A DNA stretch of 64,000 nucleotides from Clostridia bacterium. GTDB lineage: Bacteria > Bacillota > Clostridia > Christensenellales > UBA1242. Of this stretch, positions 39,361 to 58,761 are shown piece after piece. The position numbers and the translations under genes are program-made. The stretch is from contig JAFVTW010000022.1 in assembly GCA_017503005.1 (NCBI GenBank), positions 46,949 through 110,948 of the forward strand. Direction: 5' to 3'. Positions within the stretch are counted from its first letter, which is position 1. Each line of letters starts with the position of its first letter. The notes beneath the pieces were generated by a model that saw only the letters and a program-made list of their open reading frames with translations, did not search any database and was not told where the DNA came from.

Positions 39361-39410
39361 AAAAAACAAAAGAACTAATCCGTGTTAAGATTAGTTCTTG
39401 CCTGGCGGAG
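39361..39410 (-). repeat. tRNA 3'-end remnant 1 plus terminator hairpin (putative outer att site)
   Basis: Minus strand reads CTCCGCCA-GGC-hairpin (39370-39399)-TTGTTTTTT. Confidence 0.5.
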
Positions 39411-39579
39411 TGTTTGTAACATAAAACGAATTAAATTATAAATTTGTGGCATAAGGTATATTGACAAAATAAAACTCATATTAAACTAACAAAAACTATA
39501 AAATATAAGGTTGTAGAGCAATTTTGCTTTTCAACCTTTTGTTGTTGATTTTGAAAAAAATTAATGAGTATGATATTAT

Positions 39580-40149
39580 ATGAGTACATTTGAAAATTTT
39601 GAAATGGTGGATAATCAAATTGTAAATAATAAATGGATTGAATGGAATCACTTTGGAATACCTAATGAAGCTGGGTTTTTAAGAGAAACAATTAGAATTT
39701 TAATGCTTGTTTTGGGGCACTGTTTGATTTGCACAAAATTAGATGGTTGTTATTTTGTAGAAAGAAAAATGCCAGAACAACCACAACACGAAAGATGTGA
39801 TTGTACCAAATTGAATAAGTCACAAACCCAGGTTAAAGATGTCTCAAATTCAGAATGCGATATTAGAAAATTTACTGATTATATATTTAGAGGTACAGGT
39901 GGTAAAAAAGACCTTTTTGAATCGTGGGGTTATACATTAAAAGATTCACAAATATTGCAAAAAGAGTTTGAAAAACAAGCAAGAGAACAATATATAAAAG
40001 GTAATTACGAATTAAAAGGTTTAGATTATAATGGACAACGAATAGCAATTCCCATAAATCTAAAAGGAAATATATTTTATAGTGGGTGGATGGTATATCC
40101 TAACGGAAAACTGAAAAATACTACCCCATTTGGAGGTTGGGTGAAATGA
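39580..40149 (+). CDS. MuF-type zinc-motif fragment fused to a DUF6883-like C-terminal domain (putative toxin module)
   Basis: HCLICTKLDGCYF...PEQPQHERCDC resembles the Phage_Mu_F CxxC..LDG...PP.H..C.C block. C-terminal KFTDYIF...GGKKDLFESWGY...GQRIAIPI...W resembles DUF6883. Confidence 0.45.
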   Translation: MSTFENFEMVDNQIVNNKWIEWNHFGIPNEAGFLRETIRILMLVLGHCLICTKLDGCYFVERKMPEQPQHERCDCTKLNKSQTQVKDVSNSECDIRKFTDYIFRGTGGKKDLFESWGYTLKDSQILQKEFEKQAREQYIKGNYELKGLDYNGQRIAIPINLKGNIFYSGWMVYPNGKLKNTTPFGGWVK

Positions 40150-40643
40150 AAAAATATGATATAGTAAAATTATCAAATTTAATAGAAGAGTATAAACAAA
40201 ACAATTTATATCTAAATGCACAAGGAATTGTTTTAGAATGTAACAATGAAAAATCAAAAGTATTATTTTTAAATGAATATAATCAAGGAGATTATGCTTA
40301 TTTAGAAGTTAGAAATAATGATGTTGAAATAATTTCTAACGATACAGCTTTATCTTTTATGAATTATATAAAAGATAATCTTAAAGATTTTAATCCAAAA
40401 GAAAAAGGATTTAAACAGAAAGAATTTAATGCATATGAAAAAGTTGAATTATTAATTGAAGATGATAAGTATTCTAAACTTGGAGTTCACAAAGGAGACA
40501 AAGGTGTAATTATGGAAGATTATGCTGTAAAAGATTATGTTTTGGTCGATTTTGGTAGATTGGATGAAGATAATAAATATTTCGGAGATTGTATATCTGT
40601 TAAATTAAAAGATTTAAAAATATTGGAAGAAAATAGGGACTAG
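40146..40643 (+). CDS. protein with two DUF4926-like repeats (putative cognate antitoxin/immunity)
   Basis: ATGA start/stop overlap with the upstream gene. Two segments YDIVKL...GIVLE and EKVELL...GDKGVIMEDY..VLVDF. Confidence 0.4.
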   Translation: MKKYDIVKLSNLIEEYKQNNLYLNAQGIVLECNNEKSKVLFLNEYNQGDYAYLEVRNNDVEIISNDTALSFMNYIKDNLKDFNPKEKGFKQKEFNAYEKVELLIEDDKYSKLGVHKGDKGVIMEDYAVKDYVLVDFGRLDEDNKYFGDCISVKLKDLKILEENRD

Positions 40644-40665
40644 ATTTCTAGTCCCTATTTTTTTG

Positions 40666-40727
40666 TACAAAAAATCCGAACTTATTGTTCGGATTAGGTT
40701 TCTATGGCGGGGTGAAGAACTCTCAAC
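40666..40727 (-). repeat. tRNA 3'-end remnant 2 plus terminator hairpin
   Basis: Minus strand reads ...GTTGAGAGTTCTTCACCCCGCCA-TAGAAACCT-hairpin (40673-40695)-TTTTGT. About 23 nt resemble a degenerate acceptor/T-arm. Confidence 0.45.
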
Positions 40728-40791
40728 ATTGCGAAATGGGGCAAAATTGTGGCAAAAACACATCAGAACCTCTTGAAACACATCAAAATAG

Positions 40792-41082
40792 TACAATTTT
40801 GACTCTAACACTACAAAAGACCAATCGGTTCCAGAGAAGACTGAATATGATGATTACATAGTCAAACAAGCTGGGATTATCTACAAAAATCAAAAGGTCA
40901 GCCCCGAAGGAATCAACCTGCGCTACGATGCACTAAAACGAAAAGATATGTTCAAAGAAATCACCGACATCAACTTCAATACCTTCGTAGCTTATCACCA
41001 CCTCATCGCCATAGCAATCACCTTCGAAAACGACCACGGCAAATCGGTTGACCACTACCTTAAAAAGTATGGGTTGTTTTAA
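40792..41082 (+). pseudogene. startless 3' gene fragment, copy 1 (ends ...AYHHLIAIAITFENDHGKSVDHYLKKYGLF)
   Basis: 96 open codons after an in-frame TAG. The only in-frame ATG/GTG/TTG is a late internal ATG that would give just 44 aa. The last ~64 codons are repeated at 41919-42110. Confidence 0.5.
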
Positions 41083-41085
41083 GAA
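40891..41085 (+). repeat. direct repeat copy 1 (~195 bp)
   Basis: Hand alignment to 41919-42113 gives about 26 substitutions, no indels and a 38-nt perfect block. Confidence 0.85.
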
Positions 41086-41175
41086 TATGCTAAAAAAGTT
41101 AGTCAAGTATAGACTTTGAGATTGAAGTGTGGTAAAATTGCTCTACAGATAAATTTGCTATGGGATTTATTTGTT

Positions 41176-41226
41176 CCCCGCTTGATATGAAAATATCAAG
41201 CCCCTCCAATTCAAACTTTAAGGAGG
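41176..41226 (+). promoter_or_regulatory. 5' UTR hairpin and possible anti-SD element of the nucleotidyltransferase gene
   Basis: 9-bp stem gcttgatat/atatcaagc with GAAA loop (41180-41201). CCTCC (41203-41207) is complementary to SD GGAGG (41222-41226). Confidence 0.4.
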
Positions 41227-41232
41227 TAAAAT

Positions 41233-41871
41233 ATGTTTGAATATGTTCCGAAAAGTGAATATCAACCCATACGAAAATATGTTGAATCAGTAATAAACAA
41301 AGTTCAAGATGATTTGCGTAAAAATGGTATAGTTACTTTTCAATATCATCTTATTGGAAGTGCCGGTAAAAGGCATCTTATAACTAGAGAAATTAATGGT
41401 AATAGGGGATTTGATTTTGATTATAACTTTGTGATACAAAAATATAATCCAGATTATCAAAAACCTAAGGAATTAAAAAAGGTATTTATTAACGAATTTA
41501 ATAAATACTTTGGCTCTAATTATGAGTGTGCCGAGGATTCTACTTCAGTGTTTACAATTAAAAACATAGATAAAACAAAATCAAAGATAATACATAGCTT
41601 TGATTTTGCTATTGTTGACTATGTTTATGACTCTGAAGATAGATTGCGACAAAGATACATAAGGTTTGATAAAAATACTAAAGGATATTCTTGGGCTTTT
41701 AGAAAACTTCATAATGACCATAGCGATTATGAAGAACTTATAAAAGAAGAAGGTTTATGGAATAAGTTGAGAGATTTATATCTTGAAAACAAAAACAAAG
41801 AACCACATAAAAAATCAAGAATAGTTTATTATCAAACAATAGATACAATTTACAAAAGATACTTCCAATAA
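41233..41871 (+). CDS. minimal Pol-beta-fold nucleotidyltransferase (SMODS/CD-NTase-like, 212 aa)
   Basis: hhGSxxK...(15 aa)...FDFDYNF (GS...DxD) followed by HSFDFAIVD (third acidic residue). Confidence 0.55.
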   Translation: MFEYVPKSEYQPIRKYVESVINKVQDDLRKNGIVTFQYHLIGSAGKRHLITREINGNRGFDFDYNFVIQKYNPDYQKPKELKKVFINEFNKYFGSNYECAEDSTSVFTIKNIDKTKSKIIHSFDFAIVDYVYDSEDRLRQRYIRFDKNTKGYSWAFRKLHNDHSDYEELIKEEGLWNKLRDLYLENKNKEPHKKSRIVYYQTIDTIYKRYFQ

Positions 41872-41875
41872 AAAG

Positions 41876-41905
41876 CATCCCTACTTCGGTAGGGGTGTTT
41901 TTTAT
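41876..41905 (+). terminator. intrinsic terminator after the nucleotidyltransferase gene
   Basis: 9-bp stem around a TTCG loop, followed by TTTTTT. Confidence 0.7.
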
Positions 41906-41915
41906 ATTAATATAA

Positions 41916-42110
41916 AACCAAAAAGTCGGCCCCGAAGAAATCAACCTGCATTATGACGCCCTAAAACACAAAGATATGTTTAAAGAAATCACTGATATAA
42001 AACTCAACACCTTTGTAGCTTATCGCCATCTCATCGCCATAGCCATCACCTTCGAAAACGACCACGGCAAATCGGTTGACCATTACTTGAAAAAGCATGG
42101 GTTATTTTAA
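41916..42110 (+). pseudogene. startless 3' gene fragment, copy 2
   Basis: 64 codons open after an in-frame TAA. Homologous to the end of 40792-41082. Confidence 0.5.
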
Positions 42111-42113
42111 GAA
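41919..42113 (+). repeat. direct repeat copy 2 (~195 bp)
   Basis: See copy 1. Confidence 0.85.
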
Positions 42114-42556
42114 AATAATTAATTATTAGTAATAATAAGTTGACAAAACAACTTTATAGTATTATCATGATTGTGTTAGCACTTGAAGGGCAAGACTGCT
42201 AATAAATATTATAATAAAAGAGGTTATATCTATCGAGTATTAATTTGATTGATTTCAATATAAAAAAATAACATCGAGACGAATATAATCTCGATGTTAT
42301 TTTATTTACAACTTGAGAATGAATTCTTTCTAGTTTGGTCGCTTGTAAGAATTCAACAAAGGAGTTGATAATGATTATTCTGTGAAATCACTATACAAGT
42401 ATATTACACAAATTTGTGATCATTGTCAACCGGAAACTTAAAAGAAATATACAAATATGTAAAAACTAATTTGCAGATATAGTATATTTTGAGACTAGCT
42501 GACAGTGATTTTTTTATTCTCTAAGTTGTTTCAACCTAATTTAGGAGGTGCTAAAA

Positions 42557-42778
42557 ATGGCAGTACATGTAACGCCACATAAAAATGGTTGGCAAGTAAA
42601 AACTGGTGGAGCAACGAAAGCTCATAGAGTTGTTGATACGCAAAAACAAGCGATAGATATAGCAAAGTCGGTTGCGAAAAATCAACAAACTGACACAAAA
42701 ATACATGGTCGAGATGGTCGAATTCGTGCTGGAAACAGCTATGGCAATGACCCTCATCCACCAAAAGACAAGAAATAA
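42557..42778 (+). CDS. DUF2188-like small protein
   Basis: VTPHKNGWQVKTGGATKA....TQKQAIDIAK..A.....D..IHGRDGRIR pattern. ATG follows AGGAGG. Confidence 0.65.
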   Translation: MAVHVTPHKNGWQVKTGGATKAHRVVDTQKQAIDIAKSVAKNQQTDTKIHGRDGRIRAGNSYGNDPHPPKDKK

Positions 42779-42799
42779 GAAACAAGAAGGAGAATAATT

Positions 42800-44092
42800 A
42801 TGTTAAAATTATCAGGAGATAAGTTAAAAAGAGAAGGTTTAATAACAGATTTGTTTAATTTGTTTGAAAACTTTGGTAATCAAAATGGCCGCGGATTGAC
42901 TATGGTGATTAATGGTAAATATGGTAGCGGAAAATCAACACTATTAAATTTTATCGAAGAAAAAAATGAGCAAGAAGAAAAGTTTAATATTCTTAAATAT
43001 AATGCGTGGGAAAACAATTTTTTTGAAAATCCACTCATACCTATATTGCATACAATTAGCAAATTAAAAACAAATGGTGCAAAAATAAAAGATGGTGCAA
43101 AAAACATATTAAAAAATATTCCTAAAGTGTTCTTTGCCACATTAGCAAATGCACATAGCTTAGATTTGCAAGCATTATGTTCAAATGAAAACATATTTGA
43201 AGAGTATGATTCTTATAGTAATGCAATGTCAGAATTTAAAAACATCCTAAAAGATCATTGTACTATAAAGAAAACGATTTTGTTTGTGGATGAATTGGAT
43301 AGGTGTTTGCCAGAATATCAAATTAAAGTGTTGGAAAGCATTTATCACTTATTGGATATTCCTGATTTGATAGTTGTGATTGCTTTAGACAAAACACAAT
43401 TAGAAAATGCTATTAAATCAAAATTTGGTGAAGATCAAAACACTTATGGTTATTTAGCAAAATTTATTCAATATGAGATAGATTTACCAGAAGGCGATAC
43501 TTATGAATATATAAAGCAGCTAATGACATTTTCAGTACAAAAGGAATATGAATATGAAACGAAAAGCTTGATTTCTGATATGTTCAAAGTTAATAATGTT
43601 TCGATAAGAGAATGTCAGTTAATGATAAACGAGATTAATATGATCTGTAATGAATGTGGGAAAGATGGTAAACAACTGATATGGTTATATTGGTATCCAA
43701 TTCTTATAGCATTGTTAACAATGATGAAGAAACTAGCGCCTAATGTCTTTAAAAAATATTTCGGAGTTATGAAAGAACGTGTTAATAATTATTCAAACAC
43801 TTTAACTTCTCTTAATTCGACAGATTATGGTGAGTTTTTAAAGGATATTGAAAATACTGCTATAAAACAAATATTAAAGGTTTTATTAAACGATAATTAT
43901 GGGCAATGTTTTATGTTGCACTTCATTAACACTTTTTATCCTATTAGAAAAATAGCACTTGAAAGCTTATCTTCTTACATTGGTAGAGATGGTGATACTA
44001 TTCAGTCTATCACAAACAGTTATGGAGATAAAATGGCATATTATCCAGAGATGATAAATGGTGTAATTGAAAAATTAAAAATATTAAAATAA
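42800..44092 (+). CDS. KAP-family P-loop NTPase
   Basis: Walker A INGKYGSGKST, Walker B LFVDELDRC, and VIALD block typical of KAP NTPases. Confidence 0.75.
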   Translation: MLKLSGDKLKREGLITDLFNLFENFGNQNGRGLTMVINGKYGSGKSTLLNFIEEKNEQEEKFNILKYNAWENNFFENPLIPILHTISKLKTNGAKIKDGAKNILKNIPKVFFATLANAHSLDLQALCSNENIFEEYDSYSNAMSEFKNILKDHCTIKKTILFVDELDRCLPEYQIKVLESIYHLLDIPDLIVVIALDKTQLENAIKSKFGEDQNTYGYLAKFIQYEIDLPEGDTYEYIKQLMTFSVQKEYEYETKSLISDMFKVNNVSIRECQLMINEINMICNECGKDGKQLIWLYWYPILIALLTMMKKLAPNVFKKYFGVMKERVNNYSNTLTSLNSTDYGEFLKDIENTAIKQILKVLLNDNYGQCFMLHFINTFYPIRKIALESLSSYIGRDGDTIQSITNSYGDKMAYYPEMINGVIEKLKILK

Positions 44093-44113
44093 GGTTTATT
44101 GCATTTTTTAATC

Positions 44114-44347
44114 TTAAAGAGATAAAAACTTAACAACAAACTCAATAATTTGGTCAACTTCGATAGAGTGAAGTTGACCTTTTTCTATGTCTAAATAAAG
44201 ATATTCTTTCCATTTGTCTTTTGAAAAGTCCTTTAGGAATTTGTCTTCCATTTCTACAACTTTGTTAAGTTGAAGTTTATACTCTGCAGTCATTTTCTCT
44301 TCATAATATTTTTCTCTAATCATTTCTGCTAAAATTTTGTTATCCAT
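44114..44347 (-). CDS. hypothetical small protein (77 aa)
   Basis: ATG after GAGGTG. Convergent with the KAP gene. Confidence 0.4.
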   Translation of the reverse strand: MDNKILAEMIREKYYEEKMTAEYKLQLNKVVEMEDKFLKDFSKDKWKEYLYLDIEKGQLHSIEVDQIIEFVVKFLSL

Positions 44348-44478
44348 AAACACCTCACATTAATAGTTGGTGTGTGTTTTAACTCTTTAAAATGACAATT
44401 ACAAGTACTTTCTAAAAATAAATTGTATTTTCGTACAAAATCAGAAAAAGTATGTTATAATATCGTTGAGGTAAACTT

Positions 44479-45543
44479 ATGATTAAAAAAATAGAGAACT
44501 TTGTTGATAAATTTAATAGTTATTTTGTTTTACCATTATTGGTAGTATTTTTATTATCATATTTAAGCGAAGAGTATTCAACATCAAGGGTTGGTGTTGC
44601 TATTAATATTGTATTTAGTATATTATTTGTTGCTTATTTAGTTTTAATAATTTATAAGATTTGCAAGAAGACTATTAAAACTCAATCATTAATATGGGTA
44701 TTAGTAACGTCGTTAGTTTTAATTGTTTTATCTTTTGTTATGAGTTTTGGTGATAATGCATCAATTTCAGATATATTTTTTATTGCTGGTGTTATATTTT
44801 TTGAATCCTATTCTTTGTTTATTGTTATACAATGTTGTTTTTCTGAAAAAACAATGATTACAAAGGCTATAATCTTTTCAATGATTTTTATAATATTAGG
44901 TTATTATACGATTTATTTGGCTGCATATGAAAAATCAGATAATTCAATGTTTAATGCGCTGATAAGTGTTTTTTCAGCGATTATTGGCGGAGGAATAACA
45001 CTTATTGGTGTTGCGTGGACTATAAGAAATGAGGCAAAAGAGCGAAAAGAGGATCAAATTGAATATAACAATGTGAAAAAATTGGAATATAAACCTTACT
45101 TCAGTGCAAAAAGAATTGTAGATACTGGTAGAAAAAGACATCATATTATAGATTTAAATAATCCTAAATATGGATATATACTTGATTATTTCTTTGTAAA
45201 TAAAATTAAAGAAGATGAAGAAATTTTTATTATGGAACCAGTTGTTTGCATAAATACAGATCATTCAAATTTTATGGTAAAAAGAGTTGATTTTTTAGAT
45301 GATTCAATTTATTTGGATGAACTAATTAATAGAAATGAAAACTTTGCATTCTTTAATGAAAAAAGATTTTTTATCAAAAACAAAGAAGAACAATTAAAAT
45401 TTAGGGTGTATATTGAAGATTTTATAGGAAATGAATATAAACTTGATTTTTTATTTGAATATTTAAGAAGATCTGAAGATGGACCTAAAGGACCAATAAA
45501 ATATAAACTTGCGGTATACAAAAGAATGCAAGAAGTTAAATAA
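44479..45543 (+). CDS. membrane protein: N-terminal ~6 TM plus ~160-aa soluble C-terminal domain
   Basis: Hydrophobic N-terminal half and charged C-terminal half. No motif recognised. Confidence 0.55.
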   Translation: MIKKIENFVDKFNSYFVLPLLVVFLLSYLSEEYSTSRVGVAINIVFSILFVAYLVLIIYKICKKTIKTQSLIWVLVTSLVLIVLSFVMSFGDNASISDIFFIAGVIFFESYSLFIVIQCCFSEKTMITKAIIFSMIFIILGYYTIYLAAYEKSDNSMFNALISVFSAIIGGGITLIGVAWTIRNEAKERKEDQIEYNNVKKLEYKPYFSAKRIVDTGRKRHHIIDLNNPKYGYILDYFFVNKIKEDEEIFIMEPVVCINTDHSNFMVKRVDFLDDSIYLDELINRNENFAFFNEKRFFIKNKEEQLKFRVYIEDFIGNEYKLDFLFEYLRRSEDGPKGPIKYKLAVYKRMQEVK

Positions 45544-45754
45544 AACACAATGTTAACAAATTTAAAATTTGTTTGTTTTTATTTGAATTTTCAATACAAA
45601 TTTGGAAAATGTGTGGTATAATGAAAAATGCTAGGAAAGAGTAGATAAAATACTTTTACCTGCATTTAATATGATGAAGAATTCATAGATTCTTTGAGAG
45701 AAAAAACAGGTTGACAAAATTGTTTCATATAGTATCTATAGAATTGGAGGAATA

Positions 45755-46837
45755 ATGGATAAAAAGACAATTAGGGTGTTTGAAGGATTTGCGGGATATG
45801 GCGGAGGTAGCTTTGCTTTAAGAAAATTAAAGAAAAAATATCCAGCTTTTAATTATGAAGTAGTAGCTTATTCCGAAATTGATAAATATGCATCAGAGTT
45901 ATTTGATGCAAACCATAGAGATAAGAATGGTAATCCAATTAAGAATTACAATGATATAACATTGGCAAATCCAGAGGATGAAGATTTTCCTGATTTTGAT
46001 TTATTTACAGGGGGATTCCCTTGTCAACCATTCTCAACGGCTGGTATGCAAAAAGGTGTTGATGATCCATATGGAAGAGGAACCTTATTTGAACACATAA
46101 TGAGAATATGTAAAGTAAAAAAGCCAAAATATATTTTACTTGAAAATGTAAAAGGCATATTATCTAAAAAGTTTGATGAAACTAGAAAACAAATGAATGA
46201 TATGCTTAGAGAAATGGGGTATGTGTCAGACAAGAATGACCCTAATGAACAACCATTAGCAATGGCAGTATTAAATAGTAAGGATTATGGTGTACCTCAA
46301 AATAGAGAAAGGGTATGGATGTTTGCTAGATTAGGAGGTTTGCCAAAAGATTTTACAATGGTTCCTCCACAACAGAAAAACGATTTAAGATTAGGTGACT
46401 TTCTAGATCCTGTTGATAGAGTTCCAAAAAACTTATATTTATCAGATAAACAAATTGCTCATTTAAAAGAAAAACATCATATTGAGAGCTTTATTGTAGA
46501 TAAACCATTATGCTTTGATGTTTATAATAAGAAAATTAAAATAGATGGTTATTCTATAACATTAACAATGCCTGAACACAATAGCGTAAGGGTTATTGAG
46601 GCTCATGAAGATAAAGAAGTTGTTAGAAAAATGTCTGTAACTGAACAATTTAGATTAATGGGCTTAGAGGGATTAAAAGACGCAGATAGAGAAGTTGATA
46701 TTGATTTCATAAATCACTCTTATACTCAATTATCTAAAAGAGCGGGTAATGGTTGGGATGTAAATTTGGTGACAATATTGTTAGAGCATATATTCTCGCA
46801 ATTAAAAGATGTTGACTCAGATATGTTTGATATATAA
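45755..46837 (+). CDS. DNA (cytosine-5)-methyltransferase
   Basis: Motif I FEGFAGYGG, IV GGFPCQPFS, VI ENVKG, VIII QNRERV, X GNGW. Confidence 0.9.
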   Translation: MDKKTIRVFEGFAGYGGGSFALRKLKKKYPAFNYEVVAYSEIDKYASELFDANHRDKNGNPIKNYNDITLANPEDEDFPDFDLFTGGFPCQPFSTAGMQKGVDDPYGRGTLFEHIMRICKVKKPKYILLENVKGILSKKFDETRKQMNDMLREMGYVSDKNDPNEQPLAMAVLNSKDYGVPQNRERVWMFARLGGLPKDFTMVPPQQKNDLRLGDFLDPVDRVPKNLYLSDKQIAHLKEKHHIESFIVDKPLCFDVYNKKIKIDGYSITLTMPEHNSVRVIEAHEDKEVVRKMSVTEQFRLMGLEGLKDADREVDIDFINHSYTQLSKRAGNGWDVNLVTILLEHIFSQLKDVDSDMFDI

Positions 46838-46846
46838 GGAGAAAAT

Positions 46847-47929: not shown

Positions 47930-47947
47930 AGAGTAAAGGAGAGTAAT

Positions 47948-48766
47948 ATGCCAGAAGCAAATAGTAGAAGAAGAGCTATGACATCTGATCAAGCAAGACA
48001 AGTTAGAGCTCAGGGACATTTAGATGCGAAGGAGTTTGCTCGCATTATAGGTGTTGGGGATGACTATCAAAATGGAGCAACGGATAAAAAAGATGTAGTT
48101 GATCAAAATGGAGACACTCATTCTTTAAAAAGTGGAGAAACTAGGTGGCAAATATTTTTATATTCTGTTACGAGGTTTAAAGAAGATGTTATTTATAAAG
48201 TGATGGGTGGTGTAGGAGATGGAGTAGGTAATTTAATCTTAGAGTGTTTAAATTGCTTTCCTGATTCATTTGATGAATATTTAGAAAATAAAAACAAGTA
48301 TAAAATCTTATTAAAACCAAAGATGATATCATTATGTGGCAAATTGCAAGATAAAGATGTTTTTGCTGCGTTTTTGGTTAAGTCAATTTTTAATTGTGGA
48401 GAAGTAAATTACCTTACAATAAAGAATGATGAGAAATTCCATGTTTTTCTTTCTAATGATGTTGTGGAATGCATGGTCGAAAATGTTGAAAGACAAATGT
48501 CTAAATCGAGAGGAAGAGATCAAATGCATTATCAGAAGGTTGTGTTAGTTCATGACGATGTTAATGTGGGTACAATTGAAATTAGACACGATAGTACTTC
48601 TCATTATAAACAAGCTGTTTTTGCTTTGAATAAGGCAGATATATTTCGTATGTTAACTTCAAAAATAACAAACAAACAGGAGTGGGGAGATAAAGTTGTT
48701 GTTTATTGTAAAGCAATTAATAAGTTTAAAAAGAAGCATAAGGAATATCTACAAAGCAATCAATAA
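47948..48766 (+). CDS. hypothetical protein, possible second nuclease of the R-M locus
   Basis: Same strand, 18-nt gap. KKDVVDQNGDTHSLKSG could be a D...SxK variant nuclease motif, which is speculative. Confidence 0.35.
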   Translation: MPEANSRRRAMTSDQARQVRAQGHLDAKEFARIIGVGDDYQNGATDKKDVVDQNGDTHSLKSGETRWQIFLYSVTRFKEDVIYKVMGGVGDGVGNLILECLNCFPDSFDEYLENKNKYKILLKPKMISLCGKLQDKDVFAAFLVKSIFNCGEVNYLTIKNDEKFHVFLSNDVVECMVENVERQMSKSRGRDQMHYQKVVLVHDDVNVGTIEIRHDSTSHYKQAVFALNKADIFRMLTSKITNKQEWGDKVVVYCKAINKFKKKHKEYLQSNQ

Positions 48767-49038
48767 TACCCATTGCCTCTCTTTTTGAGATAAAAGAAAA
48801 GATTGAAAGGACAAAAACGGGTTTCAGTTTTTTTGTGAATAAAAAGGTTGTCATTATGTGTTGTATTAAATGGAAGTGTAAGATATAGTGAGTTTACAAT
48901 TAAATATTTAGAAATAGAGAACCACGAGTTTCAGCCAGAGATAGAGATATCTTTGTTGGATTTCGTGGTTTTTGTTTTTAATATTTGTATTAAAATGTTA
49001 TCATTTTATTAACATATTATAAACAAGGGAAGAGTTGT

Positions 49039-50052
49039 ATGGAAAAAATACAATATGCATTAAAAGATGATAAATTGTGTTGCATTGATGAGGTGGAATC
49101 AGGATTAAAGTGTGGCTGCGTATGTCCTGCTTGTGGTGGAGTGATGGTTGCTCGTAAGGGGGACATTAAAATTCATCATTTTGCGCATAAATCAAAAGTT
49201 GTGTGTGAGCATGGTTTGGAGACTTCGTTGCACTTGTTGGCAAAACAAATTTTGAAAGACGTTAAAACATTTATGTTGCCGTCTATAAAGTTTAGAGATC
49301 ACGGATGTGTTGTGATTGAAGAAAAACGCAGCATAAAAATTGTAAATGTTGAATTAGAAAAATATATAAATGATATCAAGCCTGATATATTAATGGTTGA
49401 TGAAGATGGAAACAAATATTGTGTTGAAATTTATGTAACGCATGCTATTGATAATGAAAAATTGGAAAAAATAATAAAACTTAAATTGAATACAATTCAA
49501 ATAAATTTAAGTGATTTTGCGAACAAGCAAATAGGATATGATTTTTTGAGAGAAATACTTATTTGTGAAACAAATAAAAAAGAGTGGAAGTATCACTCTA
49601 AAATAGAAGAAAAAAAGAACGAACTTGCAGTTCCTGTTATTAAGTTGAAAAACTGTGTGTTCCAACAAAAGAGGATGTTGGCAGATTTTATTTATTGTTT
49701 AACCCATTGTAAATATGGAGTGGGGATGTCGAAAGATGATAGTGAGGTGTATTGTACGCGAGCAAATGAGGTGTTAGCTGGTTATAAGATTTCTGACAAG
49801 CCCAAATATCATAATGATCCCGAGTGTGGGTGTAAATTAGAAGTTGTTCGAGAAGGGGATAGATTTTATTATAAGTGCACAGGCTATCCTGTTTGCGATT
49901 ATAAAGAAAATATAGAAAGTGTATACCAAACATTGGCGACGGGGGAAACTTGTCCAATATGTAAATCTAAAATGGTTTTGAGAACAGGTAAAAATGGTAA
50001 ATTTTTAGGATGTGAAAGATGGCCGCAATGTAGTTATACAAAAAACTTGTAA
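49039..50052 (+). CDS. CoiA-like nuclease fused to two topoisomerase-type zinc ribbons
   Basis: N-terminal C.CPACGG...HHFAH...C...ETSLHL..K, core KPDIL...VEIYVTH, C-terminal CPICKSKMVLRTGKNGKFLGCERWPQC plus a second C4 unit. Confidence 0.6.
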   Translation: MEKIQYALKDDKLCCIDEVESGLKCGCVCPACGGVMVARKGDIKIHHFAHKSKVVCEHGLETSLHLLAKQILKDVKTFMLPSIKFRDHGCVVIEEKRSIKIVNVELEKYINDIKPDILMVDEDGNKYCVEIYVTHAIDNEKLEKIIKLKLNTIQINLSDFANKQIGYDFLREILICETNKKEWKYHSKIEEKKNELAVPVIKLKNCVFQQKRMLADFIYCLTHCKYGVGMSKDDSEVYCTRANEVLAGYKISDKPKYHNDPECGCKLEVVREGDRFYYKCTGYPVCDYKENIESVYQTLATGETCPICKSKMVLRTGKNGKFLGCERWPQCSYTKNL

Positions 50053-50100
50053 AATATGGGAAGATTTGCCCAATATTTTAACACTTTAAATGTGTGTAAT

Positions 50101-50146
50101 AAAAAACAACCCAACCAAACTTTGTTGGGTTGTTTTTGTGGCGGGA
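50101..50146 (-). repeat. tRNA 3'-end remnant 3 plus terminator hairpin
   Basis: Minus strand reads TCCCGCCA-CAAAA-hairpin (50106-50133)-TTTTTT. Confidence 0.4.
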
Positions 50147-50162
50147 AGACCGTTATCCAATC

Positions 50163-51230
50163 CTAACACTCAGGTTTATCTTGGTTATGGTTGGATTCGT
50201 CTTTCTCTGGTTTTATAATATCTTCAGTTTTCTCATTATTTTCGTCTTCAGTTTTAGAATCTTCTTCATTTTTAAAATATAGTAAATTTTTATATATTGT
50301 GTTATAAAATTTTGTATCAGGCAGATTTGATAGTACTGATGACATATACTTATTAAAATTTGAACTTAAGTTATATAATGATTTAATAGCTGTTGCCATT
50401 ATTTCGGTATTATAATTATAATTAATTGATGAAATCATTTTAGTAAGAGCTTTTAAATAATTGGAAGCAATTATCTCTGAATTTAATGTCGATTTTACGT
50501 CAAGAACTTGGTGTGAACTTATTGCTCTGTCTAGCTCCTTATTTGCTTTATTGAATAACTTATTTGCTTTTTTATAGTCATCATATGATATGTTGTGAAA
50601 ATGCATAACATGATTTCTATAAGTATATAATTCAACATAATAAGTATCAAATTTAAAATCTTTATATTTTGGTTTAAAACATGTTTCCCAAATAGAGTTG
50701 TTAGGAACATCTTTTAGATTTTTATGAATAAATCCATCATTTTTTAAACCTTTTATGCTTTTATATGCTTCTTCGTCTCTGAATAATAACATAAAAATAT
50801 TTGAAAGGTCAGAATATTCAAAAACTAAATCTTCTTCATATTCCTTTCTATGTAATTGTAATTTACTTTTAATGTCTTTTGTTAATGCTTCAAACCCTTT
50901 ATTTAAAATCTCTTGTGTATCACACAGTGCTATATTTAGTAGTTTTCTTAGGTTAATTTCAAATTTTTGAATAAGTGGGTATAACTTTCTTTGAAACAAT
51001 AAACTTGGTTCACACTTTAACGTTTTTATTTTTATTCCTTCCGCTTCAACTTTTGTTTTTATTTCATTGTATTCACAAAGTAAAATTATTGCATTTTTAA
51101 TACTTTCTTGTTTTGCGGTAAGTTTTAATATATAGTTTTCTTTACCATCTATTTGATAGTAATCCACATCAACGTATTTACTGGTTGGTTTAAAAGAAAG
51201 GTTTTTATCAATCAATATTTCAATTATCAT
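50163..51230 (-). CDS. HEPN-domain protein (Swt1-like HEPN), acidic C-terminal tail
   Basis: FEINLRKLL helix and Rx4H motif YRNHVMHFH. Confidence 0.5.
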   Translation of the reverse strand: MIIEILIDKNLSFKPTSKYVDVDYYQIDGKENYILKLTAKQESIKNAIILLCEYNEIKTKVEAEGIKIKTLKCEPSLLFQRKLYPLIQKFEINLRKLLNIALCDTQEILNKGFEALTKDIKSKLQLHRKEYEEDLVFEYSDLSNIFMLLFRDEEAYKSIKGLKNDGFIHKNLKDVPNNSIWETCFKPKYKDFKFDTYYVELYTYRNHVMHFHNISYDDYKKANKLFNKANKELDRAISSHQVLDVKSTLNSEIIASNYLKALTKMISSINYNYNTEIMATAIKSLYNLSSNFNKYMSSVLSNLPDTKFYNTIYKNLLYFKNEEDSKTEDENNEKTEDIIKPEKDESNHNQDKPEC

Positions 51231-51452
51231 TTGTTGCTCCTAAATTCTAATAACATTAGTATAGCATATAATCTTTATTTTTGTATATATTCCATCAAAA
51301 AAAGAAGAAGTTTTTTTAACTTCTTCTCGTGGGTTTTATTGATTGGATTGCAGATGATTGTTGACTTCATTTACTGTAAATCAAGAACCTTTCACGGCAT
51401 AAACCGCCACTAAAAAAGACTAGACCTTGTTTGATCTAGCCTAGTTATGAAT

Positions 51453-51638
51453 TTAGTTGTTTAAAGAGTTTATAAAATTAATAAGCCCTACTGGTAGAAC
51501 ATTCAATATCTCATTTTTGAATCGTTGTTGGTTTTCAGGGCTTAATTCATTTAATGCATCATATAAGTCTTTACTTGCTTTTGCGGCTTTGACTTTAAAT
51601 TGAGCATATTCTCTTTCTAAATCTTCGAAACTTTTCAT
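51453..51638 (-). CDS. hypothetical small helical protein (61 aa)
   Basis: ATG after AAGAGGA. Lies upstream of the HEPN gene on the same strand. Confidence 0.35.
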   Translation of the reverse strand: MKSFEDLEREYAQFKVKAAKASKDLYDALNELSPENQQRFKNEILNVLPVGLINFINSLNN

Positions 51639-51750
51639 AATCTATCCTCTTTTTTGTTTTGGAGAAAATACTATGTGCTTATGAAGTATTAACAACGGGT
51701 TTGGTGGCATAAAGAATATAACACTTAACTTATAAAAAGTCAATAAAAAA

Positions 51751-51791
51751 GCCTAAACCGAGATTATCGATTTAGGTTTTGATTGGCGGAG
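51751..51791 (-). repeat. tRNA 3'-end remnant 4 plus terminator hairpin
   Basis: Minus strand reads CTCCGCCA-ATCAAAA-hairpin (51751-51777)-TTTTTT. Confidence 0.45.
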
Positions 51792-51955
51792 CAAACAAAG
51801 TTCAGGTTGAACTGAAAGTAGACAATAATAAAATTGTTATAAATATACTGTAAATGAGAAAAAATCTCACAAATGTGTCATAAAGTATTGATTTTTTACG
51901 AATTTATGGTATACTAAGTGTGAAAACTTATCATAATATATAAAGGAGGTATACT

Positions 51956-53203
51956 ATGATAATACAATTTAACTTCAAAAATTTTAGATCTTTTAAGGAT
52001 AAAAATACAATAGATATGCGAGCTACAAAAATTACAGAATATAAAGACCAGATTGTAGAGGTTAATGATTTAAAGTTATTGCCAATTGCTACATTTTATG
52101 GTGCAAATGCTAGTGGTAAATCAAATGTTTATTATGCCCTTGAATTTATGAGGACGATGGTATTGAGGTCTTTTTCTTTTGGGGGTACTTCTAAAGAAAC
52201 AAGTGAAATTTTTTATGATTTTAACAATAATGTGCAATTTGCTTTTGATGACGAAGCAAATAAGGCAGATACTGAATTTGAAATTATTTTTACAACTAAG
52301 TATAACGAAAAGAGTTATGTCTTTGATTATGGTTTTTCTCTCAATCCAGATAACATAATAAAAAGTGAATGGTTAAAAACGAAAGCGCCATCATCAAAAT
52401 CATTTAAAGATATATTTGCTAGAAATGAACAAGAAATAAATTTATGTGGGCTGGCAAAAGAATATGCTAACATGATTAGATTAACGTTAGAGAAAGAAGT
52501 TTTAATATTATCATTAGGTTCAAAACTTAAAATTGAGATTTGCAAAATTGTTAGAGAGTGGTTTGAAAAAATAGAATGTTTGAATTTTTCAGGCGGTTTA
52601 AATGCTTTATTTGCTAGTGAAAGGTCTCCTAAGCAGTTTGAAAAAGAAGAAATCCAAAAAAATATTTTAGATTTTATTTCTAGTTTTGATGATTCAATCA
52701 AAGGTTTTAGAAAAATTGATGACGAAAAGAAAAAGTTTTCTAACTATCCCGTTAATGCACTGCATGATACGATTGATAATTCAGGGCAAAAAGAGTTGTC
52801 ATTAGATAATGAATCTGCAGGAACTAGAAAGATGATTAGTTTATATTCGCCAATTAAAGACGTTTTGGACAATGGCGGAGTGTTGCTTGTTGATGAATTA
52901 AATGCAAGATTGCACCCACTTTTAGTTCGAAATATTATAAGAGAATTTGCAAATAAAGGAACAAATCCACTTGGTGCACAATTACTATTTACAACACATG
53001 ATACATTTCATTTAGGAGATAATTTATTAAGAAGAGATGAAATATGGTTTGTAGAAAAAAATAAAGGAATTTCTAATCTTTATTCTCTTGCCGATTTTGA
53101 ATATAACGGAACAAAGATAAGAAAAGATGCTGATTTAGAAAAAAATTATTTGCTAGGAAAATATGGTGCGATTCCTGACTTAAAGCCATTTAATTTAAAA
53201 TAG
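51956..53203 (+). CDS. AAA/ABC-type ATPase (AAA_15/AAA_21-like), defence-associated
   Basis: FKNFRSFKD, Walker A GANASGKSN, Walker B LLVDELNARLHP, and FTTHD. Confidence 0.8.
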   Translation: MIIQFNFKNFRSFKDKNTIDMRATKITEYKDQIVEVNDLKLLPIATFYGANASGKSNVYYALEFMRTMVLRSFSFGGTSKETSEIFYDFNNNVQFAFDDEANKADTEFEIIFTTKYNEKSYVFDYGFSLNPDNIIKSEWLKTKAPSSKSFKDIFARNEQEINLCGLAKEYANMIRLTLEKEVLILSLGSKLKIEICKIVREWFEKIECLNFSGGLNALFASERSPKQFEKEEIQKNILDFISSFDDSIKGFRKIDDEKKKFSNYPVNALHDTIDNSGQKELSLDNESAGTRKMISLYSPIKDVLDNGGVLLVDELNARLHPLLVRNIIREFANKGTNPLGAQLLFTTHDTFHLGDNLLRRDEIWFVEKNKGISNLYSLADFEYNGTKIRKDADLEKNYLLGKYGAIPDLKPFNLK

Positions 53204-53214
53204 TGAGGTGAAAA

Positions 53215-53853
53215 ATGGCAAACAAAAGAGAAATCTTAGCACCTAGAAGGTCCGGATTCAAGAGTCAAAATTTACCCAGATACTTAATTGTCGTTGATAC
53301 AGAGCAAACAGAATTTAATTACTTAAACGGATTAAAAAACACAATCCCACGACATCTTGTTGATAGGGTTGATATCCAAATAAAAAATACTAGTACTGAT
53401 AATTTAGTGGAGTATTGCTTAAATATGTGCAGAAAAAATCCGAATTATGTAACTCCTTGGATTGTTTTCGATAGAGATAGAGTGGTAAATTTTGATGAAA
53501 TAATCCGTGATGCATATAGTCATAAAATTAATGTTGCATGGTCTAATCCTTGTATTGAGACTTGGTTTTTTAGTTATTATGATAAGCCACAAAATATTTC
53601 TGAGTCTACTATTTGTGTGTCAAAGTTTAAAGAAAAATTTAAACAGGAAAACGGACAAGAATATAAAAAGAATGACAAAAACATATATAGAAAGTTAAAT
53701 CAAACAGGGTCTCAAGATAAGGCAATAAAATATCATGATGTTAAATTTAGAAATTATAGACAAGATGCGACTCCTCCATCGGAGATGTTTTCTTGTTCCA
53801 CAATGTATATGTTGATTTCTGAACTACTTGAAATTATTAGTAAATTGAAATAA
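53215..53853 (+). CDS. RloB-like protein
   Basis: YLIVVDTEQTEFNYL and VFDRD...VAWSNPCIETWF match the RloB pattern (cEG..TE..YF / D.D / SNPcFE.W). Confidence 0.7.
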   Translation: MANKREILAPRRSGFKSQNLPRYLIVVDTEQTEFNYLNGLKNTIPRHLVDRVDIQIKNTSTDNLVEYCLNMCRKNPNYVTPWIVFDRDRVVNFDEIIRDAYSHKINVAWSNPCIETWFFSYYDKPQNISESTICVSKFKEKFKQENGQEYKKNDKNIYRKLNQTGSQDKAIKYHDVKFRNYRQDATPPSEMFSCSTMYMLISELLEIISKLK

Positions 53854-54298
53854 ATACATGGCAATACTTACCATTTTACAGATGGCAATTCGCATTAAAA
53901 AGTTAACTGATTTAATTCAAAATATTTTTCTTCTAATTAAAAAGGAGGTAATTATTATGGCTTATGATGTTAATAAACTTCTTGTTGTTTGCGTGTGAAT
54001 TGGGTATTGCCGGACGCGAGTCACAAGAAGTTTGCCAGAGTTAATGCTCTGGCTTTTTATTTTAGCATAATTATTTATTAAAAATAAATTATTTATTTGA
54101 GAGAAATTTATACAAAAAATAATGAAACATGTTATAATGTTGTTATGGACATTCATTTAATGAAGATATTGAGGCAAAATTAAAAGAATGCTTTGTTGAT
54201 TTTATACTTGAAGGTAATATCCTTGAAAAAATAAAAGATTCTAATATTAGAATATTAACAAATTTAGCAAATAGATTATGTGAGTAGAGGTTTTGTGA

Positions 54299-54619
54299 AT
54301 GAAAATTTATAATAAGTTAGTTAGAGATAAAATTCCAGAGATTATTGCTAGTGATAATGGTAAAACTTGTGTTACCAGAATTATGGAAGATGATGAGTAT
54401 TTAGAAACTCTTAATACAAAAATGCAAGAAGAACTTAAAGAATATTTAGAAAGTGGTGATGTTGAAGAACTAGCAGATTTGGAAGAAGTATTAAGAGCAA
54501 TTCTTGATGTTAAGAAAGTTTCTTATGAGGAATTTGAAATTATTAGAAATACAAAGGTTGAAAAACGAGGAGCTTTTAAAAAGAAAATCTTTTTAGAGAG
54601 TGTTGATGATGCAAGATAA
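54299..54619 (+). CDS. MazG-like nucleotide pyrophosphohydrolase (COG4997-type, 106 aa)
   Basis: YNKLVRDKIPEII...EEL.EYLESGDVEELADLEEVL. Confidence 0.6.
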   Translation: MKIYNKLVRDKIPEIIASDNGKTCVTRIMEDDEYLETLNTKMQEELKEYLESGDVEELADLEEVLRAILDVKKVSYEEFEIIRNTKVEKRGAFKKKIFLESVDDAR

Positions 54620-55589
54620 TTTTTATGGAAGATTTACAAAAATTATTAGAGAATGTAATTATGATAATACATATAAAATGGCTTGGGCAAAATCTTTAGT
54701 CGAAATTTGCTCTAATCAAGAATTTCTGGGAGAAAAATTAACAATTTCTTTAAAAGAAATTGCCCATAAGTTTTTAAAATATTATTGGAATCAAACTATA
54801 TTTTTTGATCTAATTCAAGGAAGCAATCCTAATAGACCTCCAATTATTTTAACATTGATTAAATCTCTTATTGAAAAATACTATATTGCAATAAACAAAA
54901 AACAGCCAGAGGTTTTCGAGAAGGTTGAAGATAGATTTGCAAACATTGGTATGCAAAATGATTTTGAAAAAACATTAATTGATATTGCTAAAATTTTAAA
55001 AAATGATGTTAGTTGGAGATTTGACAATATTGACGACAATAGCACAAAATTGTATGACTATCAACAAAAGTTAGATTTTTTGGTAATTGATAAGGATAAT
55101 GCGATAGTATTAAAAAATCATCAACAAGACTTATATGATTTAATAAATTATAGATGGAGTTTGATTTTAGAATCATTTAATAGTTCTCCTAGAATTAATA
55201 AAAAAGTGAGAATTATTGATGAAAGATGTATAAAAAGGTCTCCGTTAAATAAATTTAAAACTTATTTAGATGTTGAGAACCCTAATCATTTTTGTTTTAT
55301 TTGTGGAAAACAAACATCTTCTCGTGAATTAGCTATTGATCATGTGATACCTTGGTCTTATATGTATAGTGATGACTTGTGGAATTTAGTGTACATCTGT
55401 CAACATTGTAATTCTATTAAAAGTAATGTGATACCTTCAAAGGGTCAAATTGATAGGCTAAAAGAGCGAAATAAAAAATTGCTATTATTATTAGAACAGC
55501 AAAGTTCTCACACTAAAATGATTGAAGAATTAAAACTTGCAATAGAAAAAGATTATGTAAATAAATTTTGGACAGGCTGCAAAGGATAA
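54600..55589 (+). CDS. HNH endonuclease with ~230-aa uncharacterised N-terminal domain
   Basis: CFICG...AIDHVIPWS....DDLWNLVYICQHCNSIKSN. Overlaps the MazG-like gene by 20 nt. Confidence 0.8.
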   Translation: MLMMQDNFYGRFTKIIRECNYDNTYKMAWAKSLVEICSNQEFLGEKLTISLKEIAHKFLKYYWNQTIFFDLIQGSNPNRPPIILTLIKSLIEKYYIAINKKQPEVFEKVEDRFANIGMQNDFEKTLIDIAKILKNDVSWRFDNIDDNSTKLYDYQQKLDFLVIDKDNAIVLKNHQQDLYDLINYRWSLILESFNSSPRINKKVRIIDERCIKRSPLNKFKTYLDVENPNHFCFICGKQTSSRELAIDHVIPWSYMYSDDLWNLVYICQHCNSIKSNVIPSKGQIDRLKERNKKLLLLLEQQSSHTKMIEELKLAIEKDYVNKFWTGCKG

Positions 55590-55696
55590 AAAGACAATGC
55601 TTTTACACATTGTCTTTTATATATTTATTAATACAAATTAATGCATAATTCGAAATTGATATAAAGAAAAAACGGCTTTTTAAAGCCGTTTTTTTC

Positions 55697-55784
55697 TGGC
55701 GGAGAGTTAGGGATTCGAACCCCAGGAAGCTTTCACTTCAACGGTTTTCAAGACCGCCGCTTTCGACCGCTCAGCCAACTCTCC
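55697..55784 (-). tRNA. tRNA-Ser (anticodon UGA), CCA encoded
   Basis: Hand-folded: acceptor GGAGAGT/ACTCTCC, anticodon loop CU-UGA-AA, long variable arm GAAG..CTTC, T-arm TGGGG-TTCGAAT-CCCTA, 3' GCCA. Followed by a terminator hairpin. Confidence 0.9.
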
Positions 55785-58269: not shown

Positions 58270-58761
58270 TTATTTTCTATCCATACCTTCGTTGGATTTT
58301 GTGTAAGCGATGTATTCATCATGTGCAAATTTTGCATCGTTTAGAGCACCATCGATATGTTTTACACAAATTTCTTTTCTTAGTAGTACTTGATTGTGTG
58401 TGTCGTTTACTGTAAATCTATCAGCTTCGCTAATATCACTAGCAAGTACTTGGTTGTACCAGCTTTGTTCTTTGTAGAATTCGCCTTCTACTACAGCAGC
58501 ATCTATTACCATAGCATCTGTTTTTGATTTGTACATAGGCTCTGTAAGTGGTCTGCCTTCTGCATAAGCTTTAGCTACATTTTGTGATTTGATACTTAGG
58601 CTTTTTAGTCCTGTGTTTACAATCACATTTTTGGCTGAAATCAACTCTTCAGCACACATCATATATTCTTCCACGGAAATTCCATCTTCCATCATTTCTG
58701 CTTCTTTAGCTTCGTGGCGAATTAGAAATTCATTCCACATATTTTCTGTTAAATCTTTCAT
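58270..58761 (-). CDS. hypothetical protein (163 aa)
   Basis: ORF with an upstream terminator context. No motif recognised. Confidence 0.45.
   Translation of the reverse strand: MKDLTENMWNEFLIRHEAKEAEMMEDGISVEEYMMCAEELISAKNVIVNTGLKSLSIKSQNVAKAYAEGRPLTEPMYKSKTDAMVIDAAVVEGEFYKEQSWYNQVLASDISEADRFTVNDTHNQVLLRKEICVKHIDGALNDAKFAHDEYIAYTKSNEGMDRK

Follow-up and report, generated by a model that had tools for sequence, protein, structure and literature searches.

A defence island at tRNA-Ser(UGA)

We analysed a 64,000-nucleotide stretch (hereafter the window; all positions are counted from its first base) of contig JAFVTW010000022.1 from the Clostridia bacterium assembly GCA_017503005.1. This report concerns positions 39403-55696, which lie between a radical-SAM/SPASM gene and the 3' end of a tRNA-Ser(UGA) gene (Table 1). 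A preliminary description had proposed that this interval is a single defence island of about 16 kb, lacking an integrase and inserted at the 3' end of the tRNA. The positions given there for both flanking genes are confirmed by ARAGORN, Rfam and Pfam. ARAGORN and Rfam agree on a minus-strand tRNA gene at 55697-55784 whose 3' end points left, and the island edge at 55696 directly abuts that end at 55697. A promoter-like site is found at 55864-55835, and the right flank of the island is Tex.

The composition of the island is atypical, as shown by the GC and k-mer profile that had been proposed. GC content is 0.284, compared with 0.328 in the flanks (Mann-Whitney p = 1.5e-7), and the tetranucleotide distance to the flank profile is 2.7-3.7 within the island and 1.0-1.9 outside, about two to three times the flank values. 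The coding share of the interval is only 80%. Searches of Pfam, PADLOC, NCBIfam and PHROGs revealed no recombinase or transposase family among its 17 open reading frames (ORFs), and a six-frame Pfam scan of all intergenic DNA gave no match, in agreement with the earlier statement that no such gene is present. Apart from the tRNA, no RNA family reaches its Rfam gathering threshold in the island. PADLOC recognized AbiLi and AbiLii (together the AbiL system), a type II C-5 cytosine (m5C) DNA methyltransferase (MTase_II), PDC-S16, PDC-S20 and a weak Cyclase match, all within 16 kb. The data support horizontal acquisition of the interval as a defence island without an integrase, with the 3' end of tRNA-Ser at one border and a displaced copy of that end at the other.

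Repeated copies of the tRNA end within the island

The displaced copy at the distal border had been described as matching the tRNA end at 12 of 14 positions. The repeat is indeed present: CTGGCGGAGTGTTTG at 39402-39416 is identical to the tRNA 3' end CTGGCGGAGAGTTAG (55696-55710) at 13 of 15 positions, with an exact core of 9 nt, and it is the sole other match to the tRNA end in the window at two mismatches or fewer (chance expectation 0.02). However, the earlier figure overstates the identity of the attachment (att) site, whose core is 8-9 nt long. The arm at 39398-39443 is 85% identical to L017:9291-9334, a junction in a related species. Because the bases from 39411 on are conserved at that junction, they are an element arm and not decayed tRNA sequence; the tRNA-derived part of the repeat is the core (C)TGGCGGAG only, and the next bases (tgtttgtaac...) are part of the arm. 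A decayed 15-nt att site, the other way to read the 13/15 repeat, was ruled out by the same comparison.

The distal copy is also not the only one, as had been assumed, since three internal core copies (40705, 50139 and 51784) had been missed. The terminal octamer of the tRNA, which reads TGGCGGAG on the plus strand, has six copies in the window (0.15 expected), all on the plus strand and all within 39403-55704. The hexamer TGGCGG has ten plus-strand copies in the window, nine of them within the island. We found five sites that combine a core with a hairpin, all on the same strand and in one orientation: 39403, 40705 (TGGCGGGG), 50139 (TGGCGGGA), 51784 and 55697. Of these, 55697 is the end of the tRNA itself. 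Each of these cores sits 1-9 nt from a strong hairpin that is followed by a T-run on the tRNA strand, and each site thus resembles the 3' end of a tRNA with its terminator behind it. Shuffled sequence yields 0.6 weaker hits per window. We refer to the internal sites as scars and to the stretches between them as modules A to D.

The arms on the right-hand side of scars 1 (the distal scar), 3 and 4 have counterparts in other species. The arm at scar 3 (50139-50185) is 83% identical to L016:1700-1746, which likewise abuts TCCGCCA and a hairpin, and the arm at scar 4 (51783-51846) shares 80% identity with the L018 junction on the radical-SAM side. The junctions in L016, L017 and L018 that match arms of the window carry cargo different from that of the window. 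At scar 2, nucleotide homology to the loci L030, L033 and L034, which contain the small gene p115 (see below), starts at 40698-40709.

Three further exact copies of TGGCGGAG, at 44985, 45799 and 52873, are intragenic and have the strand of the scars. At 52873, the identity to the distal scar extends over 12 nt (TGGCGGAGTGTT). We rejected these three copies as additional att sites because they are in-frame Gly-Gly codons without hairpins.

Polymorphism in conspecific contigs and related species

Among the conspecific contigs (96.7-100% identity to the window), most share modules A and D, and two differ from the window in an informative way. L008 diverges exactly at 55697 and has its own, different hairpin at the position of the tRNA terminator. 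Past the divergence it carries the end of an AlwI-like gene and a serine-recombinase-like fragment, the latter read by eye. L007 diverges left of 51381, where a Nudix gene replaces the HEPN-like gene of the window. Beside this Nudix gene, L007:420-660 contains a GC-richer imperfect palindrome of about 200 nt, of which the window retains only the right arm (51381-51414); this arm contains an inverted CCGCCA. A conserved non-coding segment with ...CATTGCCTCTCTTTTTGAGATAAAAGAAAAGATTGAAAGGAC... recurs between modules (window 48765-48883, L008:284-402 and L022:1742-1818). It may be a relic of the 5' region of a recombinase gene, since the L008 copy precedes the serine-recombinase-like fragment.

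For related species, 14 loci (L016-L029) were chosen by the radical-SAM gene, which is 77-86% identical in them. The block seen in the window is not conserved at this place: the interval in related species holds different cargo, and no island protein has a relative in any of the 14 loci. In L018, L022, L024 and L029, a tRNA-Ser(UGA) in the same orientation is found 3.9-9.2 kb upstream of the radical-SAM gene, and the cargo differs in each. Interval lengths span 3.9-16.3 kb. L022 carries a cyclase of the cyclic-oligonucleotide-based anti-phage signalling system (CBASS), an AriA-like ATPase, restriction-modification (RM) genes and a resolvase, L029 an N6-methyltransferase module, and L018 a TIR-like protein.

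The hairpin nearest to the radical-SAM gene in the window (hairpin0, 'aaaactaatcc...ggattagtttt') is kept just upstream of that gene in L019, L024, L025 and L028. It is preceded by ..CCGCCA in six loci; in L025, a stretch of 20 nt before it is identical to the tRNA end. Scar arrays were also found: L016 has six scars and L018 has three, and further arrays occur in L024, L026 and L029. L018 additionally contains a 51-nt duplicate of the 3' part of the tRNA. In L028, a gene for a 513-aa large serine recombinase ends exactly on 'cccgcca', which is followed by hairpin0 and then by the radical-SAM gene. This protein has the Pfam domains Resolvase, Recombinase and Zn_ribbon_recom, matches a PHROG integrase at 3e-98 and is encoded beside a CI/LexA-type repressor. 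A 74.5-kb viral contig encodes a homologue with 64% identity.

In L026, the tRNA-Ser located 365 nt upstream of the radical-SAM gene is a different one (CGA). Elsewhere in this locus (L026:7914-8358), the last 10 nt of a tRNA-Ser(GGA) recur twice downstream of the gene, with a spacing of about 180 nt. One of these extra copies (at 7919) and the tRNA end (8276) carry the same terminator hairpin. Other tRNA-Ser genes also seem to collect scars, given these extra end copies with hairpins at tRNA-Ser(GGA).

Probable successive insertion and its alternatives

We consider it probable that at least four integrative elements, now decayed, lie in tandem at 39403-55696, and that they were inserted one after another into the end of tRNA-Ser(UGA). 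The proposed integration at the tRNA 3' end is supported, while the idea of a single element of about 16 kb has to give way to at least four modules between scars. The target would be the last 6-9 bases of the tRNA (CTCCGCCA), used by site-specific recombination. Each incoming element would have brought an attP composed of its own terminator hairpin and a CCGCCA core, and recombination would have restored the tRNA and supplied it with a new terminator. At each insertion the former core and terminator would be displaced towards the radical-SAM gene, so the oldest module should lie at the left and the newest beside the tRNA. The integrases may have been lost later or may have acted in trans throughout. 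At least one of the recombinase families using the tRNA-Ser site would be a phage-type large serine integrase.

Several observations weigh against this reading. Neither tblastn with the L028 serine integrase nor the six-frame intergenic scan detected a remnant of a recombinase within the window, so the recombinase type can only be inferred for the four modules. The shared core is very short (6-9 nt), which makes any single scar weak evidence on its own, and the enrichment represented by the three intragenic copies of TGGCGGAG has no explanation. In L030, L047 and L052, where p115 is away from any tRNA, the core preceding p115 (TGGCGGGG in the window) has a degenerate form; scar 2 could therefore be in part a conserved leader of p115. 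All five of the conspecific contigs that include the radical-SAM gene already carry module A. An empty site, with the radical-SAM gene next to tRNA-Ser, had been proposed as a check; none was found in one metagenome-contig pattern scan (GATTAGTT-N(2-14)-TGGCGGAGAGTTAGGGATTCGAACC).

The simplest alternative is the one first proposed, a single element of about 16 kb that integrated once at tRNA-Ser and lost its integrase later. It places the outer borders correctly and agrees with a low GC that is uniform across the interval. We regard it as very improbable, since it does not provide for three internal scars with terminator and core, oriented as the distal scar and the tRNA end, nor for scar arms that match junctions of different elements in different species, nor for module-wise differences among the conspecific contigs (at 55697 in L008, at 51381 in L007). 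Alternatively, the interval might be an old chromosomal variable region that is reshuffled only by homologous recombination between the flanks and p115-type repeats, with no current site-specific integration. Repeated conserved blocks of this kind do exist, as p115 and the second small gene s77 bracket different cargo in seven loci and a 203-bp repeat of p115 flanks a nucleotidyltransferase gene; the lack of an integrase would also be expected. Homologous exchange may add turnover but cannot have made the scars: copies of the tRNA end in one orientation, with terminators and confined to the island, are left unaccounted for, and so is the L028 serine integrase that ends on the same core. This explanation appears quite improbable to us.

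A further possibility is that the modules are still-mobile cassettes, with the hairpin and CCGCCA acting as a minimal att site used in trans, possibly by a resident serine-integrase phage, and the locus serving as an integron-like or cis-mobilizable store. Modules as short as 1.3-1.6 kb with one or two genes and no recombinase, the core and hairpin intact at every scar, the very short-spaced scar arrays in L016 and L026, and the use of the same site by the L028 serine integrase would all fit, and cis-mobilizable elements and accretion are documented elsewhere (PMC5704250, PMC3146451). Still, we judge it unlikely. Given the absence of relatives of the island proteins from L016-L029, no module recurs there with the same cargo, and the only cargo seen again elsewhere is the nucleotidyltransferase with its p115 bracket in L034 and L035, at 58% identity. 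The arms differ between modules, so a single recombinase would need loose specificity. Moreover, the hairpins resemble plain terminators and not structured attC sites, and one of the cargo genes, encoding an HNH endonuclease, is decaying in several strains.

Genes carried by the modules

The features of the locus are collected in Table 1. Most of the family assignments made before are borne out by hidden Markov model (HMM) searches, namely those of DUF2188, the KAP NTPase, the m5C methyltransferase, CoiA_N, the AAA_21 ATPase with RloB, and HNH.

Table 1. Features of the tRNA-Ser(UGA) locus, with positions in the window
Feature	Position	Strand	Evidence or remark
Radical-SAM/SPASM gene, conserved chromosomal flank	38429-39298	-	Pfam Radical_SAM 1e-17, SPASM 2e-12
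Hairpin0, putative ancestral tRNA terminator, now parted from the tRNA by the island	39370-39399	-	Terminator scan
Distal att scar	39402-39416	.	Core TGGCGGAG at 39403-39410, then element arm
Module A	39411-40704		Two overlapping small ORFs
189-aa ORF, possible orphan toxin domain (module A)	39580-40149	+	Pfam DUF6883 E = 0.025, sub-threshold
168-aa ORF, possible immunity protein (module A)	40137-40643	+	Overlaps the 189-aa ORF; Pfam DUF4926 E = 0.022, sub-threshold
Scar 2	40673-40712	.	Terminator hairpin 40673-40695 and core TGGCGGGG 40705-40712
Module B	40713-50138		p115 pseudogene, nucleotidyltransferase, DUF2188 and KAP NTPase, s77, membrane protein, RM genes, CoiA-like
p115 pseudogene, frameshifted, left bracket gene of cargo slot	40736-41082	+	Homologues ~115 aa
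Minimal CD-NTase-like nucleotidyltransferase, 212 aa	41233-41871	+	PADLOC Cyclase 3.7e-6
Truncated second p115 3' end	41914-42116	+	203-bp direct repeat bracketing the nucleotidyltransferase gene
DUF2188 protein (PADLOC candidate PDC-S16)	42548-42778	+	Pfam 2e-20; PDC-S16 5e-32
KAP-family P-loop NTPase (PADLOC candidate PDC-S20)	42800-44092	+	Pfam KAP_NTPase 6e-33; PDC-S20 7e-55
s77, small conserved ORF, right bracket gene	44114-44353	-	Homology block 44107-44462
Predicted membrane protein, 354 aa	44479-45543	+	N-terminal half hydrophobic; no significant family match
C-5 cytosine DNA methyltransferase (type II RM methylase)	45755-46837	+	Pfam DNA_methylase 1e-55; PADLOC MTase_II 3e-59
360-aa protein with C-terminal NOV_C	46847-47929	+	Pfam NOV_C 5e-15; TmtA C-terminus 1e-15
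272-aa ORF	47948-48766	+	No match in HMM libraries, PDB sequences or plasmids
CoiA-like protein	49039-50052	+	Pfam CoiA_N 9e-12; Zn_ribbon_Top1 2e-19; two topoisomerase-type zinc ribbons
Scar 3	50103-50146	.	Terminator hairpin and core TGGCGGGA 50139-50146
Module C	50147-51783		HEPN-like protein and 61-aa ORF
355-aa HEPN-type protein (module C)	50163-51230	-	RNxxxH motif; Pfam HEPN_Swt1 E = 0.04
Inverted scar	51404-51442	.	CCGCCA 51404-51409 beside hairpin 51417-51442
61-aa ORF	51453-51638	-	Gene called in L006, L007, L040-L042; no family match
Scar 4	51752-51791	.	Terminator hairpin 51752-51776 and core TGGCGGAG 51784-51791
Module D	51792-55696		AbiL and MazG-like/HNH pair
AbiLi (AAA_21 ATPase)	51956-53203	+	PADLOC AbiLi 4e-86; Pfam AAA_21 4e-24
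AbiLii (RloB-like)	53215-53853	+	Pfam RloB 4e-30; PADLOC AbiLii 2e-18
MazG-like NTP pyrophosphohydrolase homologue, 106 aa	54299-54619	+	Overlaps the HNH gene
HNH endonuclease, 329 aa	54600-55589	+	Pfam HNH 6e-10
Present tRNA terminator, presumably supplied by the newest module	55667-55694	-	Terminator scan
tRNA-Ser(UGA)	55697-55784	-	Integration target; ARAGORN, Rfam

The minimal nucleotidyltransferase of module B, which had been recognized before, has the catalytic-type residues G42, S43, D61, D63 and D124 (GS...DxD...D), invariant across 45 homologues. In its AlphaFold model (predicted local distance difference test score, pLDDT, 90), the best Foldseek matches are CdnB, DncV and cGAS (E = 3e-6, template modelling (TM) score ~0.5). 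Conserved residues and modelled fold support the view that this ORF encodes a short enzyme resembling the cGAS/DncV-like nucleotidyltransferases (CD-NTases). The gene is flanked by p115 copies, and no CBASS effector was recognized among its neighbours. Next to the methyltransferase gene, the 360-aa protein ends in a NOV_C domain, which we take to be nuclease-like; it is a candidate for the restriction partner of the methyltransferase, and the 272-aa ORF is possibly a third gene of the RM module. Restriction endonuclease models gave no match for either protein.

Module A had been described as a pair of a MuF-type toxin with DUF6883 and a DUF4926 immunity protein. This assignment does not hold, since neither family reaches its curated Pfam cut-off. 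The 189-aa ORF has no match in PADLOC, NCBIfam or PHROGs, and the 168-aa ORF matches phrog_7871 at 1.3e-5. Module A is possibly a remnant of a toxin/immunity pair. In module C, the earlier HEPN assignment gains support from the RNxxxH motif: R205, N206 and H210 are invariant in 7/7 homologues (only seven were found), and the motif fits a HEPN-type protein.

Module D contains adjacent genes for the AbiLi ATPase and the RloB-like AbiLii, that is, an AbiL system, followed by the MazG-like and HNH genes. The MazG-like assignment comes from homologues: the 106-aa ORF is 42-48% identical over its full length to proteins that RefSeq names 'nucleoside triphosphate pyrophosphohydrolase', and it has no HMM match of its own in Pfam, PADLOC or NCBIfam. 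The MazG-like and HNH genes look like a unit, as the pair is also present on a Bacillus thuringiensis plasmid. The HNH gene is split or truncated in the conspecific contigs L009, L012 and L013, which suggests that this module is decaying.

Searches of PDB sequences with the MazG-like, nucleotidyltransferase, HEPN-like and 272-aa ORFs gave nothing significant, and tblastn against plasmids with the nucleotidyltransferase, NOV_C, 272-aa and HEPN-like ORFs gave no match. NCBIfam and PHROGs added nothing for the island ORFs left without a family.

Two observations were made outside the island. A full-length ROOL RNA lies far from it at 12956-13505 on the plus strand (Rfam RF03087; 317 bits, with a gathering score of 99; all model positions, 1-574, are covered). 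At 58270-58761 on the minus strand, the window has a 163-aa ORF that is not called as a gene in the conspecific L006. There, about 155 nt have been inserted or duplicated close to the 3' end of the ORF (L006:8343-8444).

A cargo slot between two small genes

Module B contains a slot that is bracketed by p115 and s77. The p115 family comprises proteins of about 115 aa that are 80-95% identical across many metagenomes. Its variable columns are distributed over the three codon positions as 18, 11 and 47, indicating purifying selection, and the full-length copy in the window carries a frameshift. The arrangement of p115, nucleotidyltransferase and p115 fragment is also found in L034 and L035, where the nucleotidyltransferase is 58% identical. 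The s77 proteins are 79-92% identical in L022, L030, L033, L047 and L051, and partial s77 matches lie at the contig ends of L036 and L052.

The order p115 (+), cargo, s77 (-) recurs in seven loci: the window, L030, L033, L036, L047, L051 and L052. The cargo is DRT3 (Drt3a and Drt3b) in L030, a Cas3/DpdF-like helicase in L033, IetA and IetS in L051 and PDC-S53 in L052; L036 and L047 carry genes without an assigned identity, and the window carries the CD-NTase-like gene, DUF2188 and the KAP NTPase. The p115/s77 pair looks like a conserved docking slot for defence systems. Comparable slots for defence systems are known in other mobile elements.

Neither p115 nor s77 matches a family in the libraries searched. 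No p115 was found in viral contigs, and only two distant loci were found in a metagenome-contig search. The AlphaFold model of p115 (pLDDT 55) was not used for a fold search. Contig breaks at about 40.76-40.87 kb in L002, L003 and L005 were considered as strain variation and are more likely due to the repeated p115 gene. In L030, about 500 nt of non-coding sequence between p115 and Drt3a/Drt3b (L030:10349-10870) end in a terminator-like hairpin, and this segment may be a non-coding RNA of the DRT3 system.

Comparison with known systems and implications

The closest known counterparts are tandem accretion and cis-mobilizable elements (CIMEs) at tRNA genes and the 3' ends of genes, such as ICESt1/CIME of Streptococcus (PMC5704250). 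The locus resembles them in having elements without integration genes but with att sites, and arrays of direct repeats downstream of the target. It differs in that the repeats are only 6-9 nt long and each has its own terminator, the cargo is predicted to serve anti-phage defence, and conjugation or mobilization genes are lacking. The ssrA islands of Dehalococcoides likewise follow a small RNA gene in tandem, with direct repeats of the 3' end of that gene as their borders, and some without an integration module have been proposed to be cis-mobilizable (PMC3146451). Their large serine recombinase lies beside the distal att site on the reverse strand, a placement also seen in L028. Their target is the tmRNA, the repeat is 20 bp long and the cargo is reductive dehalogenases, whereas the window has tRNA-Ser as the target and a shorter core, and none of its modules has kept an integrase.

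With integrons the locus shares an ordered series of short, recombinase-less modules that end in a hairpin and a short conserved core beside a fixed anchor. However, it has no IntI tyrosine recombinase and no attI, its core is CCGCCA and not GTTRRRY, its hairpins are simple terminators and its genes have mixed orientation. In defence hotspots, for example those of P2/P4 prophages, unrelated systems replace one another between conserved flanking genes. The p115/s77 slot likewise swaps unrelated defence systems between fixed genes, but here the bracket genes encode two small proteins of uncultured Clostridia that are absent from the viral contig collection. Among the cargo systems, the predicted AbiL system of module D has the adjacent AAA_21 ATPase and RloB-like genes that are typical of AbiL. 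The nucleotidyltransferase shares with CBASS CD-NTases the Pol-beta-type residues GS...DxD...D and a predicted fold closest to CdnB, DncV and cGAS. Compared with these enzymes (~300-330 aa), it has only 212 aa, no recognized adjacent effector, a TM score of ~0.5 and a PADLOC match of 3.7e-6.

Taken as a whole, the object is of an ordinary kind, a decayed composite defence island at a tRNA hotspot. What is new is the scar architecture at base level, the conservation of the hotspot across the clade and a few candidate systems; the added value is modest, and none of these results overturns current ideas. We would give only a small chance to the combined proposal that the terminator-CCGCCA units are working minimal att sites served in trans and that p115/s77 is a portable docking slot of an undescribed kind. 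If it were true, integrase-less defence modules would be loaded, stacked and swapped at tRNA-Ser by a recombinase acting in trans, for instance that of serine-integrase phages, and the locus would be a tRNA-anchored, integron-like store of defence genes. Unrelated systems (DRT3, IetAS, PDC-S53, a helicase, and the CD-NTase-like enzyme with the KAP NTPase) would then exchange in the p115/s77 slot in gut Clostridia.

Under the reading that we prefer, the successive insertion of integrative elements into tRNA-Ser(UGA), the locus would show cleanly, and at the level of single bases, how a defence island is put together, by repeated insertions at a tRNA end that each leave a scar and a terminator, followed by decay of the integrases. 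It yields as candidates the 212-aa CD-NTase-like enzyme, the p115/s77 bracket, and the MazG-like and HNH pair, which is conserved between Clostridia and a Bacillus plasmid. Throughout a clade of uncultured Clostridia of animal guts, the stretch from tRNA-Ser(UGA) to the radical-SAM gene is a hotspot of defence systems, and it will be a useful site for mining new ones.

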